Source: an uncultured cyanobacterium (GTDB taxonomy: Bacteria > Cyanobacteriota > Cyanobacteriia > Cyanobacteriales > Cyanobacteriaceae). Taken from it: a stretch of DNA of 64,000 nt. The stretch is from positions 448,001-512,000 of the forward strand of contig CAVVOP010000021.1 of assembly GCA_963749915.1 (NCBI GenBank), read 5' to 3'. A program made the translations under genes and the position numbers. The notes below the pieces were generated by a model, which was given only the letters and a program-made list of their open reading frames with translations, was not told where the DNA came from and did no database searches. This document shows, piece by piece, positions 49,549 to 55,483 of this stretch; position 1 is the stretch's first letter, and the number at the start of each line of letters is the position of its first letter.

Positions 49549-49608
49549 AACTTTAGGGTAACTGTGCTAATAATTCATCAAAAATATGTTATGATGTCTG
49601 GTGGTTAA

Positions 49609-49682
49609 CGGGATGTAGCGCAGCTTGGTAGCGCACTTCGTTCGGGACGAAGGGGCCGCAGGTTCAAATCCTGTCATCCCGA
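49609..49682 (+). tRNA. tRNA-Pro(CGG), CCA not encoded
   Basis: Acceptor CGGGATG/CATCCCG, anticodon arm CTTCG-TTCGGGA-CGAAG, T-loop GGTTCAAATCC. Confidence 0.96.
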
Positions 49683-49708
49683 TTCTAATCAAACCTGTTG
49701 TACATTAT

Positions 49709-49835
49709 CAAAATCGAGGTAAATTAATCTTAGATGCAAGTTGTCCGCCAAGACAAAGAAGACCAAGAAAAGAAACCAGTAGAATTTGGGGGTAAAATAA
49801 GTGCCAGTATTTATGAAAATTTTGTCTTTTTAGAT
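49709..49835 (+). pseudogene. IS5-family transposase fragments
   Basis: NRGKLILDASCPP joined out of frame to KPVEFGGKISAS..FVFLD. Confidence 0.7.
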
Positions 49836-49836
49836 A

Positions 49837-50246
49837 ACTGACGTTACGCAAAGAGTCATAAATCAGGTTAAAATGACAAAATGAAACAACAACTCAAAGA
49901 ACCCTATAGTGATTATCTAATTAGTTCTTTCAATCAAGTGACTGCCACAGGCTTATCATCAGCATTGAAAGGAAATGTCAGCCATGATCAGGTGACAAGG
50001 TTTTTGTCCGGAGAAGAGATGACAAACAAACAACAAAATCGAATACTGGTTTAGCTAAATCACCAACAAAGTGTATTAAAACTCAGTGTAATCATATTTT
50101 TATGTCAATATATGCAGCGTTTCAATTAGAATGCCTAAAGATCAAGCATAAGGTCAATCATTTTGCTCTTCGGAGTCGTATTTACATTAAGGCACTCCAA
50201 GAAGCTATGACAGAGTTACAGTTGCTCAAGGCTGCGTAACATCAGT
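49837..50246 (+). mobile_element. Internally deleted IS701-family element (MITE-like)
   Basis: Terminal IRs ACTGACGTTACGCA and TGCGTAACATCAGT (13/14); N-terminus YSDYLISSF..TATGLS..SHDQVTRFL and C-terminus LAKSPTK..TQCNHIF..NHFALR. Confidence 0.82.
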
Positions 50247-50302
50247 GAATAAGCTGAAAAATAAACAAGGTGCGTTACACTTCATTAACGTACCCTACAA
50301 GA

Positions 50303-50395
50303 TATGACTATTTGGTATGTTACCCAGAAAGTTTCGTCTTTTTATCCTGTAAGGATTGACTATCAGGAAAGTTTCCGCATAATACATAGTTAGCC
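50303..50395 (+). other. attI-like integron platform, copy A
   Basis: GAAAGTTTC boxes at 50327 and 50367; core GTTAGCC at 50389; homologous to 53191-53355. Confidence 0.72.
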
Positions 50396-50411
50396 TTAAA
50401 GGAACAAACAC

Positions 50412-51236
50412 ATGTCCCAAGATATCCCGGTACGTGAACCATTCCGAGTGCCCTTTCGTTCATTCACCCCGTTTCTGCTGATCTCGTTTGGATTGGCTTG
50501 GGGTATCCTTGGAATGTACATCCTTCTTCCAGAACGAATGGGAGCGGTGTTCGGGCAACTCACCGGCAATCACCCGCTTTTCTTCCTAGCCGTATACGCG
50601 CCTGCTATCGCAGCCTTCACTCTAGTTGTCCGCTACGGCGGATTTACAGGCCTGCGGCGCTTCTTCGGGCGTGTGTTGCTCTGGCGCTGCAGTGCTGCCT
50701 GGTACGCTTTTCTGATCATTGGCATACCTTTGATCTTCATCTGCGGTTCCTGGCTCAGGGGAAACCTTTTCACTGAACCCTTTCCATTCCCGTCCTTTCA
50801 GTCTTTGGTCGCGGCGTTGGTCCTTGCCGCAATCAAAGGCCCGATGGAAGAGTTTGGCTGGAGGGGGCTCGCACTTCCTCTTCTTCAAAGAAAGTTCGCT
50901 CCGCTCTGGGCCGGACTGATTCTTGGAGCCATCTGGGCACTTTGGCATTTGCCGGCCTTCCTGTTGAGCGGAACCCAGCAGAGCGAGTGGTCATTCACCG
51001 CGTTCTTTGCTGGATGCCTGGCGATAAGCGTCATCGTAACGGCACTGTTCAATGAGTCGAAAGGCAGCATTTTGCTGTCGGCGTTTTTCCACTTCTCACT
51101 CATGAATCCTATCTTTCCTGACGCCCAGCCCTATGACACATACCTGTTGATCGTTGTTGCTGTCCTGATCGTCTGGCGGAAACGTAATAATATGTTAAAA
51201 AGACAAGGTGCTGTAGTGGAAGTAATTTCGCATTGA
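50412..51236 (+). CDS. CPBP (CAAX/Abi) intramembrane metalloprotease, cassette gene
   Basis: EEFGWRG, WALWHLP, SILLSAFFH; visibly GC-richer. Confidence 0.9.
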   Translation: MSQDIPVREPFRVPFRSFTPFLLISFGLAWGILGMYILLPERMGAVFGQLTGNHPLFFLAVYAPAIAAFTLVVRYGGFTGLRRFFGRVLLWRCSAAWYAFLIIGIPLIFICGSWLRGNLFTEPFPFPSFQSLVAALVLAAIKGPMEEFGWRGLALPLLQRKFAPLWAGLILGAIWALWHLPAFLLSGTQQSEWSFTAFFAGCLAISVIVTALFNESKGSILLSAFFHFSLMNPIFPDAQPYDTYLLIVVAVLIVWRKRNNMLKRQGAVVEVISH

Positions 51237-51248
51237 AAGGCAGCCGAT

Positions 51249-51267
51249 GGCTAAATCGACGTTAGCT
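51249..51267 (+). other. Collapsed attC (core boxes only)
   Basis: GGCTAAA-TCGAC-GTTAGCT. Confidence 0.55.
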
Positions 51268-51277
51268 ATTTATTCAA

Positions 51278-51682
51278 ATGAAAACTAATATGAATGCTTT
51301 GTTCGCAAAAGCTATAGCAATTTGGTTATTAATTGCAGCAGGAGAAATATTGAATGGAAATTTCCGTGTCAGATTCCTGCATAGAAGATATGGAATAAAT
51401 CGTGCCAAGAAAATTAGTTTCTTCACGGGGATCACAATAATCTATACGATATGCTGGTATACGCTACCCTGGGTCAATCCCGCAAACTTGCAAGACTGTT
51501 TCCTGATAGGTCTGATCTGGATGCTCTTAATGCTTTGCGTTGATATTTACTTTGGAAGGTACGTATTCCGTGTCAAATGGATTAAGATATTAGAGGACTT
51601 CGATCTAAGAAAGGGTAACCTGCTTGGTATAGGCATGGGATTGTTATTTTTCTGTCCGACTATCGTATATCTACTGACTTGA
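51278..51682 (+). CDS. Hypothetical membrane protein, cassette gene
   Basis: Hydrophobic ORF between GTTAGCT (51261) and attC (51716). Confidence 0.75.
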   Translation: MKTNMNALFAKAIAIWLLIAAGEILNGNFRVRFLHRRYGINRAKKISFFTGITIIYTICWYTLPWVNPANLQDCFLIGLIWMLLMLCVDIYFGRYVFRVKWIKILEDFDLRKGNLLGIGMGLLFFCPTIVYLLT

Positions 51683-51715
51683 AACAATACCGGCTCCTAA
51701 TAAGTGAGACCAAAA

Positions 51716-51775
51716 GGCTAACAAGGCTAATACAGCCGACGCAAAAAGGCGCGCGGCTGATTAGCGGCGTTAGCT
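51716..51775 (+). other. attC recombination site (60 bp)
   Basis: GGCTAAC-AAG-GCTAAT(A)CAGCCG...CGGCTGATTAGC-GGC-GTTAGCT: R''/R' and L''/L' boxes with one extrahelical base. Confidence 0.9.
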
Positions 51776-51778
51776 TGA

Positions 51779-52384
51779 TTGATCGATTCTAACCACACAA
51801 AACTGGTGAGTGAAATGCATAGTATAGCGGAACTTTGCGATAATCTCGTAACAGCTTATGAAGCTAAAGGGCAGGCGGTCTCTCAAAACCTGAAGCCCGG
51901 TATTTCCGAGTCTGCATATGCCAGGGCCATTGGTTTTGACCTCCAAGAGATCCCGCCTGCTGTGCTCAAGCTGTATCAATGGCGCAACGGTTGCGCCGAT
52001 GAAGAGGCTGAAGCGCTGTTTTTATTTAGAGACAACTGCTTCATCAGTGCCGAGCGAGGCAAAGAAGAACTCAACCAAATCAGAAAGTTCTATAGCGCTG
52101 ACGATGAGGATCGATTTGACCTTAGTCGCGTGATTCCCATCGCTGCTTTCGAGGGTTCAGTATTCGCAGTGATAACTGGCAAACATAACTTTGGACCTGA
52201 ACTCGAGTATCCGGTCGTCAGTATCTTTGAAGGCATTGACCTGTTGTTCAGCTCTATTGAGGCCATGTTGCATACCTGCATTGCCTGGGTCGCTCACCCT
52301 GACTGGGATCCTTATGATGCACTTCCCAGGGATGTAGAACTTGAGATTTGGAAGCGGTTGAATCCGGCAGTAGACCTGGGGTGA
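51779..52384 (+). CDS. SMI1/KNR4 (SUKH) family protein, cassette gene
   Basis: LKPGISE...IPPAVLKLYQWRNG, IPIA; start may be the ATG at 51815. Confidence 0.75.
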   Translation: MIDSNHTKLVSEMHSIAELCDNLVTAYEAKGQAVSQNLKPGISESAYARAIGFDLQEIPPAVLKLYQWRNGCADEEAEALFLFRDNCFISAERGKEELNQIRKFYSADDEDRFDLSRVIPIAAFEGSVFAVITGKHNFGPELEYPVVSIFEGIDLLFSSIEAMLHTCIAWVAHPDWDPYDALPRDVELEIWKRLNPAVDLG

Positions 52385-52439
52385 TAGCCAATCCCGCTGC
52401 CAATCGCCACATTACATTAGTTTGTTCTTCAGCTAAAGT

Positions 52440-52559
52440 AAAGCCACCTAAAACGTTCCCCTCAAAACGGCTCAGTCTTTAAAATTACAGGGGCAGCCAG
52501 ATTGGTCAGAGAAAATTGACCAATATTTATACGAGGAAACTCTCTCCAACAATGATTGA
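52440..52559 (+). pseudogene. Antitoxin remnant
   Basis: LKTAQSLKLQGQPDWSEKIDQYLYEE..* overlaps the PIN gene start; no intact 5' end. Confidence 0.55.
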
Positions 52560-52849
52560 AGTTTTTTTAGATACTTCTTTTGCGATCGCCTTATCTTCTG
52601 TCACCGATCGAAATCATGAACTGGCTGTTAAACTTGCCAATCAACTTGGGACTGACGGAAACCGTTTGGTCACAACTCAGGCGATTTTGCTGGAAATAGG
52701 TAATTCGCTTTCTAAACAAAAATACAGGGCAGCGGCAATCCAACTTTTGGAATCTCTCGAAACTGACCCCTGTGTCGAAGTCGTTTTATTAACTGACAAC
52801 CGATATCCATTTTCAGCAGGCAGGTTTTCGAGCATTGTTAAGGGACTAA
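52552..52849 (+). pseudogene. vapC: VapC/PIN toxin with internal deletion and frameshift
   Basis: VFLDTSF..TTQAILLE N-terminus; C-terminus LTTDIHFQQAGFRALLRD* in another frame. Confidence 0.8.
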
Positions 52850-52988
52850 TCCTCTTACATGAATCCTAACTTAGCCGTTATTTTGAAAAAAAGAGGAAGG
52901 CATTTACGATATTGAGTGCTTTTTATTTGATCTTATCTCACTGCAAATGCGAGCTTGCTTACTATGTTAACTTAGTTTTAGTGAAAAG

Positions 52989-53047
52989 GCGATCCCGCAG
53001 GGATCTGCTTCGCAGGGCGCATCTTTGATGCAGCACTACGCGATCGC
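52989..53047. repeat. Small dispersed repeats associated with HIP1 (SDR5-like)
   Basis: GCGATCCCGCAGGGATCTGCTTCGCA and GCGCATCTTTGATGCAGCACTACGCGATCGC, short hairpins built on HIP1 halves. Confidence 0.5.
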
Positions 53048-53062
53048 ACTGAATACGTATTA

Positions 53063-53161
53063 TCAAGAAAAGAGATAGCTTTTCTCTGTCTTATAGTAAT
53101 AATGTTTCACCCAAATTACATTTCTAACTTGTTCGAGCAATTTTTGAGGAGGTTTTGACAT
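53063..53161 (-). pseudogene. intI: Integron integrase N-terminal relic
   Basis: MSKPPQKLLEQVRNVIWVKHYYYKTEKSYLFS* matches the IntI N-terminal pattern KLLxQVRxxIRxKHYSxxTExxY; divergent from attI. Confidence 0.8.
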
Positions 53162-53190
53162 AGAATGATATTCAGAAAAAGTCTTGATAT

Positions 53191-53355
53191 TATGACTATT
53201 TGGTATGTTACCCAGAAAGTTTCTGGCTATTATCAAAAAATATACGGAAAATTTCGTGATATCATTCTATATGGGTTTGATATCCAGAAAGTTTCAGCTT
53301 TTTGTGCTGTAATAGTTAGCTAGAAGGAAAGTTTCTTTATAATATATAGTTATGC
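53191..53355 (+). other. attI-like integron platform, copy B
   Basis: GAAA(G/A)TTTC boxes at 53215, 53247, 53287, 53327; TATAAT at 53338; core GTTATGC at 53349. Confidence 0.78.
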
Positions 53356-53398
53356 CCCCCAAAAAACAACGACTATCACATCCACAATCCAAATAAAG

Positions 53399-54115
53399 AT
53401 GCGAAATCGTTTTTTGCTATCCATCTTTACACTCGCAGCTCTGGTAATTTGCACTGCGCACCGATCTGTAGCGCAGAACAAGTCTGCTAATGGCGATGTC
53501 ACATCTGCAACACTATCGGACATTGCCAATCTAATCACGTCCATTGCGCAGATCCTTTGGCCTGTGCTATTCCTGATTCTTCTTTTCTTACTCCGTCACC
53601 AAATTCGCGCTTGGTTCGAATCGGGGGCGGAAATTGCTTGGGAGTTCATGGGCAATAAGCTCGTTGTGAAGCCATCACAAGTCGTTAGACCACCAGTTGG
53701 CGAGAGTGCCGAATCTGTGCAGTTATCTGCTATTGAGTCGCGTGACCCAATACCGGTTGATTACTATTTCATAAACCACACATCCTTCCTTCGTCTGGAC
53801 AAGCAAGCGGAATTCCAGACTCGGACAGGCGTTAAAGCCCCCCACTACGATATCCGCGTGATCGTAGATTCTTACTATCGCGGTGCGTTAGACCGAGTAA
53901 AGTATGTGAAATATCTGCTACATCCAGCATATCCGGAACCAATTCAAATCCGTTCACAGGCAGCGAACAAGTTTTTGCTTAAAGAACTCGCAAATGGTGA
54001 GTATGTCCTCATCGCACAGGTGTATCTGAAAGATCGTAAAGAACCCCTCATTCTTCAACGTTATATTACTTTGTACAAAGACGGTCCCAGATTGGATATT
54101 CCGCACGAGGCATAA
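53399..54115 (+). CDS. Membrane-anchored pYEATS-domain protein, cassette gene
   Basis: Signal/TM N-terminus; LDRVKYVKYLLHPAYPEP...KFLLKELANGEY; stop codon lies inside the attC R'' box. Confidence 0.72.
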   Translation: MRNRFLLSIFTLAALVICTAHRSVAQNKSANGDVTSATLSDIANLITSIAQILWPVLFLILLFLLRHQIRAWFESGAEIAWEFMGNKLVVKPSQVVRPPVGESAESVQLSAIESRDPIPVDYYFINHTSFLRLDKQAEFQTRTGVKAPHYDIRVIVDSYYRGALDRVKYVKYLLHPAYPEPIQIRSQAANKFLLKELANGEYVLIAQVYLKDRKEPLILQRYITLYKDGPRLDIPHEA

Positions 54116-54193
54116 CCAGGCGATGGAGCTGCTATTTCGAGGTTTTTCGCTTCGTTTTAGTTTTTTCGTCGCCGCTCATCTTTGTCGTTATAC
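54110..54193 (+). other. attC recombination site (84 bp)
   Basis: GCATAAC (exact complement of GTTATGC at 53349), GATG(G)AGC/GCTCATC, GTTATAC. Confidence 0.88.
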
Positions 54194-54244
54194 CGCCATT
54201 TTTCCATGTACAGTGAGCTACATGTAGGCGTAAAAATTGGTTCG

Positions 54245-54733
54245 ATGAGCAACAAGGTGATACATGAGTTTACGCGTTGAAATAGATGGGAGTTGGTCAG
54301 CGGAAGATTTTGCGCGAATGTTTGCTTCAGTAAATGACATTCTCCGCTTTGCCGATTACCGCGAAGATTGCGAGGCAGATTTGCCCTTCAACAATCTATG
54401 TTTGGCGTAAGCTTGACGAAACTGATTGATGGAGCAAATCTTGCTCGTTCCTTTGAATCTCTGGAAAGTGATGAAGGCTTAATGGTGCCCCGTTGCACAT
54501 ACGCTTCGCCAGGGGTTACAGATTTCACAGGTTTAGGACAAGCATTAGGTCATCTCAAAGACGTAATTATCAAGCTAATTGATGTCAAGGCTGCATCTCG
54601 TGAAAGAAACATAAGAAATCAGATATTGGAAGAAGAGTTACAGGCAGCCGCACTAAAAAACGTGCGTGAAAAGATAGCGATATTAAAGGAGCCCTCCTTC
54701 TGCCTTCTGCCTTTCAACTCCTGCCTTCTTTAA
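54245..54733 (+). pseudogene. Frameshifted and truncated cassette gene
   Basis: MSLRVEIDGSWSAEDF.. at 54264 stops early; continues in the 54368-54733 frame (YASPGVTDFTGLG) and runs into TGCCTTC host repeats; no attC. Confidence 0.6.
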
Positions 54734-54742
54734 TCATCAACT

Positions 54743-55483
54743 TTATGGGCAATTTTCAGATTCTGTGGTTTTTACTTCTACTTTTTCATAACCTGCAATT
54801 TGCATTAATCGACTAATTAAAATTACTGCTTTTTCGTTGGCCTGATCTAAGATTTTTTGCTGACAAGCGGTTTCTTTTATTTTTATTAAAGTTTGACGCT
54901 GTGCTTGGGTTTGTAATTGTGGGGCCACATCAGGGCCTAAGTTGAGAAAACCTCGGTCGTAATCATACACTTGGGATTGATTGACGTCTATTTTTTCCTC
55001 AATAATTTCTGGTGCTGGTAATGTGATTTTAAGTTTATTTCCGTCAATGAGAATATCTTTAGCCCTCATGTTACTTAAATCTAATCCTGCTTTTACCTCT
55101 CCTCTGGCTACATAAAGTAAATTTGTTTTGCCGATGACGATATTACCCAATTTACGACTAGATGAAGTTGGCACAATAGCATCCATGACAAACTTTATGG
55201 TGGTTAATTCACTAATGGCTTGAACTTGTTTGACAATTAAATGAGGGTTATTGATTTGTGGGGGGGTAATTTCGTGATCAATAATCTGGATTATCCCCTG
55301 TAAAGTGTTATGTGCACTCTTCCAAACTCCCAATACACCGAAAAGAATTATCAAGGTTAAACTGCTGGTCATCAAAGCAGTGTTTTTCAACAGCCGGGAA
55401 CTGAAAATAAATGGTTTAGAACTGTTCATCAAAAGAAAAGGATACTTTTTGCAATTCTGAATATTATAACTGAGACTTTGCAT
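54743..55483 (-). CDS. DUF4230 domain protein
   Basis: ARGEVKAGLDL, ITLPAPEI, ILDQANEKA. Confidence 0.8.
   Translation of the reverse strand: MQSLSYNIQNCKKYPFLLMNSSKPFIFSSRLLKNTALMTSSLTLIILFGVLGVWKSAHNTLQGIIQIIDHEITPPQINNPHLIVKQVQAISELTTIKFVMDAIVPTSSSRKLGNIVIGKTNLLYVARGEVKAGLDLSNMRAKDILIDGNKLKITLPAPEIIEEKIDVNQSQVYDYDRGFLNLGPDVAPQLQTQAQRQTLIKIKETACQQKILDQANEKAVILISRLMQIAGYEKVEVKTTESENCP

Follow-up and report, generated by a model that had tools for sequence, protein, structure and literature searches.

The stretch of DNA analyzed here (the window) comprises 64,000 nucleotides from an uncultured cyanobacterium, positions 448001-512000 of contig C21 in a 4.69-Mb genome (G000) of 34 contigs that is rated 100% complete. 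Its BtpA shares a 90% cluster with Geminocystis sp. NIES-3708, which makes the host Geminocystis-like. Below, C with a number denotes a contig of this genome, G a genome, L a locus and X a metagenome run. Between positions 50303 and 54734 the window contains two short arrays of gene cassettes, each led by its own attI recombination site, together with a stub of a gene that encodes an integron integrase (IntI). The locus is almost certainly integron-derived: it is a real, decayed integron, and a double rather than a single one. A preliminary description of this DNA had recognized an intI-attI-cassette architecture in which cassettes were captured and the integrase was then lost. Architecture, capture and loss are all supported, but what is present is two tandem heads and not one integron, since the array at 50390-52384 has an attI of its own.

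Head 2 (53167-53355, plus strand) carries a ladder of five palindromic units, the L box TTATAAT at 53337-53343 and the core GTTATGC at 53349-53355, which is, as was noted before, the exact complement of GCATAAC at 54110. Head 1 (50304-50395, plus strand), overlooked in the preliminary description, has a ladder collapsed to two units (at 50319 and 50359) and ends in GCATAAT-5 bp-GTTAGCC, with the L box at 50377-50383 and the core at 50389-50395. The two heads have 33 identical bases in common (50303-50335 and 53191-53223), and 50314-50392 is 77% identical to 53274-53352 over 79 bp; the attI-proximal part of head 1 is 84% identical over 73 bp to a head on C22. One metagenome contig joint hints at an uncollapsed version of head 1. 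As in other attI sites, a simple site adjoins intI and the crossover lies in GTT. When 34 heads are aligned, about 190 conserved bases extend from the intI start to a sharp drop in similarity after GTT, and 25 of 31 close heads consist, after the last unit, of an L box, 5 or 6 bp and GTT, with unrelated DNA beyond.

The integrase gene is represented by a 32-codon stub of its 5' end on the minus strand (53063-53161; peptide MSKPPQKLLEQVRNVIWVKHYYYKTEKSYLFS). The preliminary description had picked it out by its N-terminal pattern, correctly: some 30 of its residues can be aligned, with 73% identity to residues 1-30 of an intact cyanobacterial IntI (E 8.8e-7 genome-wide) that itself scores 470 bits on TIGR02249. 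The stub also matches a profile of intI DNA (E 4.3e-8) and, weakly, the Pfam family Phage_int_SAM_4 (E 0.017), and is unreported by TIGR02249 even at E 1; an intI-family gene is thus present as a remnant of about 30 residues. Scrambled IntI-like text previously suspected at 52885-52955 (HL.V, STQ, NAFLFF) does not stand out from shuffled sequence. For 52850-52985, 227-427 of 500 shuffles score as high in DNA alignments to four close intI genes, and 129 of 300 equal it against a frameshift-tolerant profile of 64 IntI proteins (23 of 300 within the expected columns). A search to the left of head 1 found no IntI remnant, and the position expected for intI there is occupied by an internally deleted remnant of an IS701-family insertion sequence (IS; 49843-50240, plus strand; NF049921, E 3.2e-11), which retains terminal inverted repeats and has copies elsewhere in the genome.

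The loss of the integrase extends to the whole genome, in which we found no IntI above the family cut-off and no integrase that was both intact and catalytically complete and had the IntI-specific insertion. The other recognizable copy of intI, on C22, has suffered two internal deletions and retains a piece of that insertion. We considered the highly iterated palindrome HIP1 as a cause of intI truncation and rejected it, as HIP1 lies near 4 of 33 breakpoints where 2.9 are expected (p 0.33). A GC-rich 60-bp insert beside the stub (52988-53047) ends in HIP1 (GCGATCGC at 53040) and has a partial copy on C31; bounded by HIP1 and a HIP1-like word, it resembles small HIP1-associated repeats.

The attC sites were located with a covariance model of 18 sites found heuristically beside intI genes of other genomes, after two of 20 aligned sites were dropped for poor alignment. 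The model places attC1 at 51716-51775 (60 bp, minus strand, a bottom-strand hairpin with extrahelical bases; 35.4 bits) and attC2 at 54110-54193 (84 bp, minus strand, boxes intact and stem weakened; 33.3 bits), and the best other place in the 64-kb window reaches 10.7 bits. R and L boxes, an extrahelical base and a bottom-strand bias are all present, the top strand of attC1 scoring 14.7 bits. Both sites had been called well-formed hairpins; both do score, but only attC1 folds better than shuffled sequence (0 of 200 shuffles as good, z -5.3, against 159 of 200 and z +0.8 for attC2). attC2 conforms to the 84-88-bp type of cyanobacterial arrays. With the same orientation, a distance of 2.3 kb and no profile-detectable intI nearby, the pair qualifies under our own attC model as a cluster of attC sites lacking integrases (CALIN).

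Cassette A (50390-51769, plus strand) carries a CPBP/CAAX protease gene (50412-51236; PF02517, E 9e-13) and a gene for a 134-aa membrane protein (51278-51682). Because the core of head 1, GTTAGCC, is the exact complement of GGCTAAC, the R'' box of attC1, this interval is a single two-gene cassette, as public metagenomes confirm; core and R'' are complementary at 7/7 positions in cassettes A and C, and the attC sites of cassettes B and D are lost. A cassette boundary at 51261, where a degenerate GTTAGCT occurs, was rejected, as metagenome contigs run through it and the attC model finds no match. The earlier view that every gene starts just after a core and is GC-richer is therefore wrong for the gene at 51278, for which that core is internal to cassette A; the 134-aa gene has a GC content of 0.38. 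Between the two genes, 51250-51267 (GGCTAA-6 bp-GTTAGC) looks like the scar of a deleted attC, so that two older cassettes may have fused to give cassette A.

Relatives of cassette A with 96-97% identity occur in groundwater, vent, estuary and marine-sediment metagenomes. Eight of the 20 matching runs listed, none of which is of RNA, were examined, and in five of them, from five studies (X6, X7, X9, X10 and X14), the match starts exactly at 50389, the GTT crossover. The groundwater contig (X6) covers 50389-51766 with 45 differences and the vent contig (X10) 50389-51614 with 52; the marine-sediment (X9) and estuary (X7) contigs likewise match from 50389 onward, a position at which X14 shows a loose end. 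No near-identical cassette A was found in 400 other genomes of the phylum, with two candidates scored per genome; one match reached 67%. Another scrap of foreign DNA lies by itself at C11:78031-78217, where 187 bp of a related CAAX protease gene (88%) stand without cassette signals.

Cassette B (51770-52384, plus strand) begins with the core GTTAGCT and bears an SMI1/KNR4-like gene (ATG, 51815-52384; Atlas lead 0.95, no Pfam match), whose relatives are commonest in cyanobacteria and of which a 75% homologue is likewise preceded by GTTAGCT. Its attC is unrecognizable, and the model has no match at 52385. Cassette C (53350-54187, plus strand) encodes a membrane-anchored pYEATS protein (53399-54115; PF20305, E 1.3e-9), and the observation that the stop codon of this gene sits inside an attC box proved accurate, the TAA lying within the R'' box GCATAAC of attC2. 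The protein has 196 homologues, and the named organisms among the 120 matches listed include no cyanobacteria. Cassette D (54188-54734, plus strand; core GTTATAC) holds a pseudogene (54264-54690) with an internal deletion and a frameshift, as seen by comparison with P0121-P0123, and its 3' end is cut by a dispersed repeat (54692-54734) that has further copies in the genome. The suggestion that the cassettes are non-cyanobacterial is thus sustained for cassette A only, on the strength of its metagenome matches and its absence from the 400 genomes, but not in general, given the cyanobacterial type of attC2 and the mostly cyanobacterial relatives of the SMI1-like gene.

The spacer between intI and attI consists of 25-bp palindromes with the center GAAA-N-TTTC and a period of about 40 bp. 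In head 2 the units start at 53167, 53207, 53239, 53279 and 53319 (steps of 40, 32, 40 and 40), and in this lineage 5 bp separate the end of the first unit from the start codon of intI. Within a unit the half-sites face inward and are 11 bp apart, adjacent units are 15 bp apart, and the gap in the attI simple site is 5 bp. T3, A4, C7 and G9 are common to the halves of upstream units (156), to attI L boxes (32) and to attI R boxes (31), and T, C, G and A with the same spacing recur in the L'' arm of attC (18 sites). The arms of a unit pair no better with each other (0.672) or across the spacer (0.671) than do arms of different units (0.666). Taken together with the common half profile, this leads us to interpret the ladder as a series of repeated IntI boxes that act in double-stranded DNA. 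In the last unit, the left half takes the position that the direct repeat DR1 has in attI1, the site of class 1 integrons.

A GTDB search with an intact IntI supplied intI loci for comparison (the best 80 of at least 575). A matrix seeded on close heads finds at least two units ahead of 36 of 45 cyanobacterial intI genes versus 1 of 22 others, leaving out 13 loci whose flanks were short or whose N-termini were missing. In a test that uses no motif, autocorrelation at 39-42 bp exceeds all 60 shuffles ahead of 38 of 42 intI genes from cyanobacteria, as against 1 of 21 from other sources; this count leaves out 17 loci, groups the rest by record title and takes two 'uncultured bacterium' records as other. 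The 40-41-bp period is maintained across Pseudanabaena, Leptolyngbya, Nodosilinea, Spirulina and others despite sequence drift. The number of units ranges from two to six and falls by deletion between repeats, as in head 1, and three or four are commonest beside an intact intI (24 of 45). The idea of a self-mobile integron, with intI bearing a recombination site at its 3' end, was also considered and rejected, as no conserved flank was seen by eye in part of the 80 loci.

Decayed heads are the rule in this order, and the present case is not a rare one. The genome contains eight head remnants: the two in the window, those at C22:156.7 kb, C8:876.8 kb, C21:101.7 kb, C21:212.8 kb and C13:3.9 kb, and a weak one at C31:4.45 kb. 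It also holds at least eight further attC sites, from a search that scored 150 of 322 candidates and did not return attC1. Of 400 genomes of the order 63 proved to have a head, against 0 of 19 other genomes of the family, two candidates being scored per genome. Among the 29 closest heads, two have an intact intI alongside, 21 a broken one and six none that was detected (one of the six at a contig end). Likewise, among 19 mostly well-assembled genomes chosen for having a head, two have an uninterrupted IntI and several have at least three stubs, and across the phylum IntI exceeds the cut-off in 11 of 301 genomes.

The copies of intI at C8, C21 (212.8 kb) and C13 all break off at one and the same point, some seven codons in. 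The attC sites at C8, C21:213.8 kb and C23:16.7 kb have the same following sequence and a common left flank, and their cassettes are dissimilar. Shared flanks around unrelated cassettes suggest that IntI was active after the local intI had been cut, although they may also stem from a common array whose members were lost differentially before the copies diverged, or from flank conversion at a later time. Each of these cassettes ends precisely at the same GTT, which hints at a dispersed, multi-site integron.

Several other places in the genome bear on this family of loci. C8:875.7-880.0, C23:10.5-16.9, C21:212.7-214.0 and C13:0.9-4.0 kb share an AT-rich left flank, and the C8 and C23 loci sit behind the same tyrosine-recombinase-like gene, which suggests a plasmid-type element with an intI-less attI platform. 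C22:154.9-157.3 kb (L008) is a second full five-unit head, whose first cassette, labeled by eye, is a McrBC-like pair with frameshifts. At C13:1.0-3.9 kb a two-unit head with attI is followed by a 2.85-kb cassette with a frameshifted DNA-methyltransferase-like gene (also labeled by eye), and the core GTTATGC exactly matches its attC. Solitary attC sites with no head nearby (C22:232747, C21:194930 and C21:611343) are likely off-target cassette insertions; the first follows a 637-aa gene that begins after a matching core. Outside this genome, at L189 (G141) and L193 (G351), a clpB-like gene is followed immediately at its 3' end by a two-unit mini-head with no more than a trace of intI, and in G141 the mini-head is duplicated in tandem.

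From the crossover points, attC sites, cassette limits, broken intI genes and the distribution of the ladder we infer the following mechanism. The locus comprises two tandem integron heads, each an attI with a short array and neither with a working intI, and we think it probable that the ladder is an array of IntI boxes that would aid the loading of attI and repress intI. Hypothetically, this involved four steps. First, an IntI of the cyanobacterial clade would have inserted cassettes through attC x attI recombination. Second, each palindrome would present two inward-facing IntI boxes 11 bp apart, and the 15 bp between neighboring units, which exceed the 5-bp gap in the simple site by one helical turn, would keep the boxes in phase; only the last pair could recombine, and the other units would just bind. 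With the first unit 5 bp from its start codon, bound IntI would block its own promoter. Third, intI would have been lost through deletion and IS insertion, as in most relatives, while the heads likely persisted because they serve as promoters of the first cassette and can be targeted by an integrase acting in trans. Fourth, the tandem layout likely arose when an allelic fragment of head plus array entered by transformation beside the resident head. Tandem heads in G141 and G197 have a duplicated flank plus head of 356 and 399 bp, about 90% identical, with different cassettes behind, as would be expected if an allelic fragment had been inserted in this way.

A number of observations weigh against parts of this scheme. 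A sigma-70-like TTGACT-16-CATAAT in head 1 (50356-50383) matches the consensus at 10/12 positions, and head 2 has no such match. Promoter matches across the region are at the chance level (9 versus 9.1), the -10-like TATAAT falls on the L box, which confounds any call of a cassette promoter (Pc), and a -35 box occurs in just 10 of 25 close and 2 of 32 distant heads and not in head 2. Heads 1 and 2 have no common left flank in the window, their flanks being too eroded, and the proposed origin of the tandem thus rests on other genomes. In a quick tree the cyanobacterial IntI mostly form one clade, so that the 38 of 42 and 36 of 45 cases are not independent and show conservation, not independent origins. 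Although 20 of 21 genome hits of the ladder matrix at 19 bits or more fall in heads, the matrix was seeded on those very heads and the scan is partly circular. Finally, the L box matches the units of its own locus barely better than those of other loci (0.664 versus 0.633; 18 of 25).

It is unlikely, though not far-fetched, that the same dead integrons carry a ladder bound by a host protein, a regulator or nucleoid protein, and not by IntI. The near-confinement of the period to cyanobacterial hosts would fit such a protein, and PMC8876359 reports host factors that bind other attI regions. However, the attI L box is itself the final half-site of the ladder, with a profile common to all other halves; no regulon appears in the genome scan, with its partial circularity; and a Chloroflexi locus of the same IntI clade (L069) has the period.

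We likewise doubt that the ladder is a by-product, generated by repeated duplication of the end unit of attI and kept uniform by concerted evolution, in which the last unit alone has a function. Such a history agrees with the varying number of units, with their collapse, and with the finding that left arms in the same orientation are the most alike class (0.74), but it sits poorly with a period that persists while the sequence drifts and with the prevalence of three or four units beside an intact intI.

A similarly improbable history is that of a single integron in which the attI region was copied at the locus itself, by internal duplication or by attI x attI recombination, instead of two alleles being joined. 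The 33 identical bases would be explained, and attI x attI recombination exists according to PMC4792948, but the attI-proximal part of head 1 is nearer to the C22 head than to head 2, and the first array is separated from the intI stub by about 670 bp of unrelated DNA, in part of toxin-antitoxin type. It is very improbable that the ladder acts, like attC, as single-stranded hairpins or a cruciform: all units are palindromic and the 15-bp spacers are weakly self-complementary (2.6 versus 1.8 of 7), but there is no excess pairing within units or across spacers and the attC model has no match on heads.

We retain two joined heads with a probable integrase-binding ladder as the preferred explanation. 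A bolder and tentative extension is that in cyanobacterial integrons SOS control was replaced by an integrase-coated, helically phased ladder, and that integrase-free heads spread through the genome as promoter-bearing docking sites, which would take up new cassettes each time the cell is visited by an intact intI. A LexA-like cyanobacterial box occurs in 5 of 45 cyanobacterial heads versus 1.6 expected and in none of this lineage. Four Nodosilinea or Leptolyngbya-type loci (L078, L079, L082 and L097) have such a box within 130 bp upstream of intI, and SOS control is possible there.

Between the two platforms lie a reading-frame fragment, presumably antitoxin-like, and a 3'-truncated PIN/VapC gene (52446-52869, plus strand; PF01850, E 7e-7). 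A near-identical contig in run X1 has 44 other bases left of 52434 and hints at a sister strain with a different neighbor of the PIN fragment. The left end of head 1 is cut by a 35-bp dispersed palindromic repeat (50269-50303) that resembles repetitive extragenic palindromes and has four more genome copies. The region is bounded by an SNF2 helicase gene and tRNA-Pro(CGG) (49609-49682, plus strand) on one side and a DUF4230 gene on the other. A special role of this tRNA, next to which the preliminary description had placed the integron, or its membership in the element was not demonstrated: a tRNA-targeting genomic island was rejected, as 49550-54900 contains no second tRNA fragment at its right end and no other integrase, and the tRNA is followed by other DNA in four congeners. 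The two flanks of the region are not adjacent in the congeners compared for an empty site. A search of Rfam returned the tRNA as the sole match, and PADLOC returned none for seven proteins. Five near-identical copies of an unrelated AT-rich repeat with GAAAGTTTC (C8:309670, C19:62913, C22:568217, C32:136730 and C34:34966) are probably the end of an IS.

Integrons in Cyanobacteria, and an attC model for them, are already on record (PMC4889954, PMC8352920). So, jointly, are CALINs, inactivation of intI in 43-46% of cases linked to the absence of LexA control, mobilization of CALINs in trans and the two direct repeats of attI1 (PMC8352920, PMC4889954, 10.1101/2022.02.06.479319, PMC3108266, PMC8618304, PMC8876359, PMC4792948, PMC3146285, PMC3607928, 10.1101/2025.06.18.660453). 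The integron system itself is thus known; neither a phased palindrome ladder nor multi-copy cyanobacterial heads were found in the integron literature, where coverage of subscription papers was poor, and the ladder-type attI with scattered integrase-free heads is a variant not found in print. The attI sites of most integrons are unknown and not searchable, as stated in PMC4889954, and loci of this kind are therefore called CALINs or missed. With the head profile, loci turn up in 63 of 400 genomes of the order, and most of them lack an intact intI, whereas intI counts alone give 11 of 301 genomes of the phylum. This suggests that the influence of integron gene capture on cyanobacterial genomes has been greater than such counts reveal. 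Cassette A, moreover, ties a cyanobacterial chromosome to the cassette pool of dark habitats.

The closest likenesses are to the sedentary integrons of Xanthomonas (10.1101/2025.06.18.660453) and to CALINs (PMC4889954), which show the same divergent layout, canonical attC sites, frozen arrays and integrases broken by deletions or stops. In Xanthomonas, however, intI stays at one locus (ilvD) with few exceptions (10.1101/2025.06.18.660453), whereas here eight remnants are scattered and two stand in tandem; the arrays here are also short (one to three cassettes), and the 19 other genomes searched in the family have no such heads. Control of intI by LexA (PMC3108266) similarly involves an operator-like element overlapping the intI promoter region, but this lineage lacks a LexA-like box of the cyanobacterial kind. 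The association there of absent LexA control with intI inactivation fits the decay seen here, and the ladder offers a testable answer to the question, raised in the same text, of how integrase is restrained in groups without a LexA box of the E. coli type. Finally, attI1 of class 1 integrons has the same L-R simple site, crossover in GTT and accessory core-like boxes upstream (PMC4792948, PMC3146285), and most environmental attI sites surveyed in the latter lack even direct repeats. attI1 has exactly two direct repeats (DR1 and DR2) in about 65 bp, whereas head 2 has five palindromic units, and the ladder comprises up to nine upstream boxes of alternating orientation with a 40-bp period, reaching to the start codon of intI.

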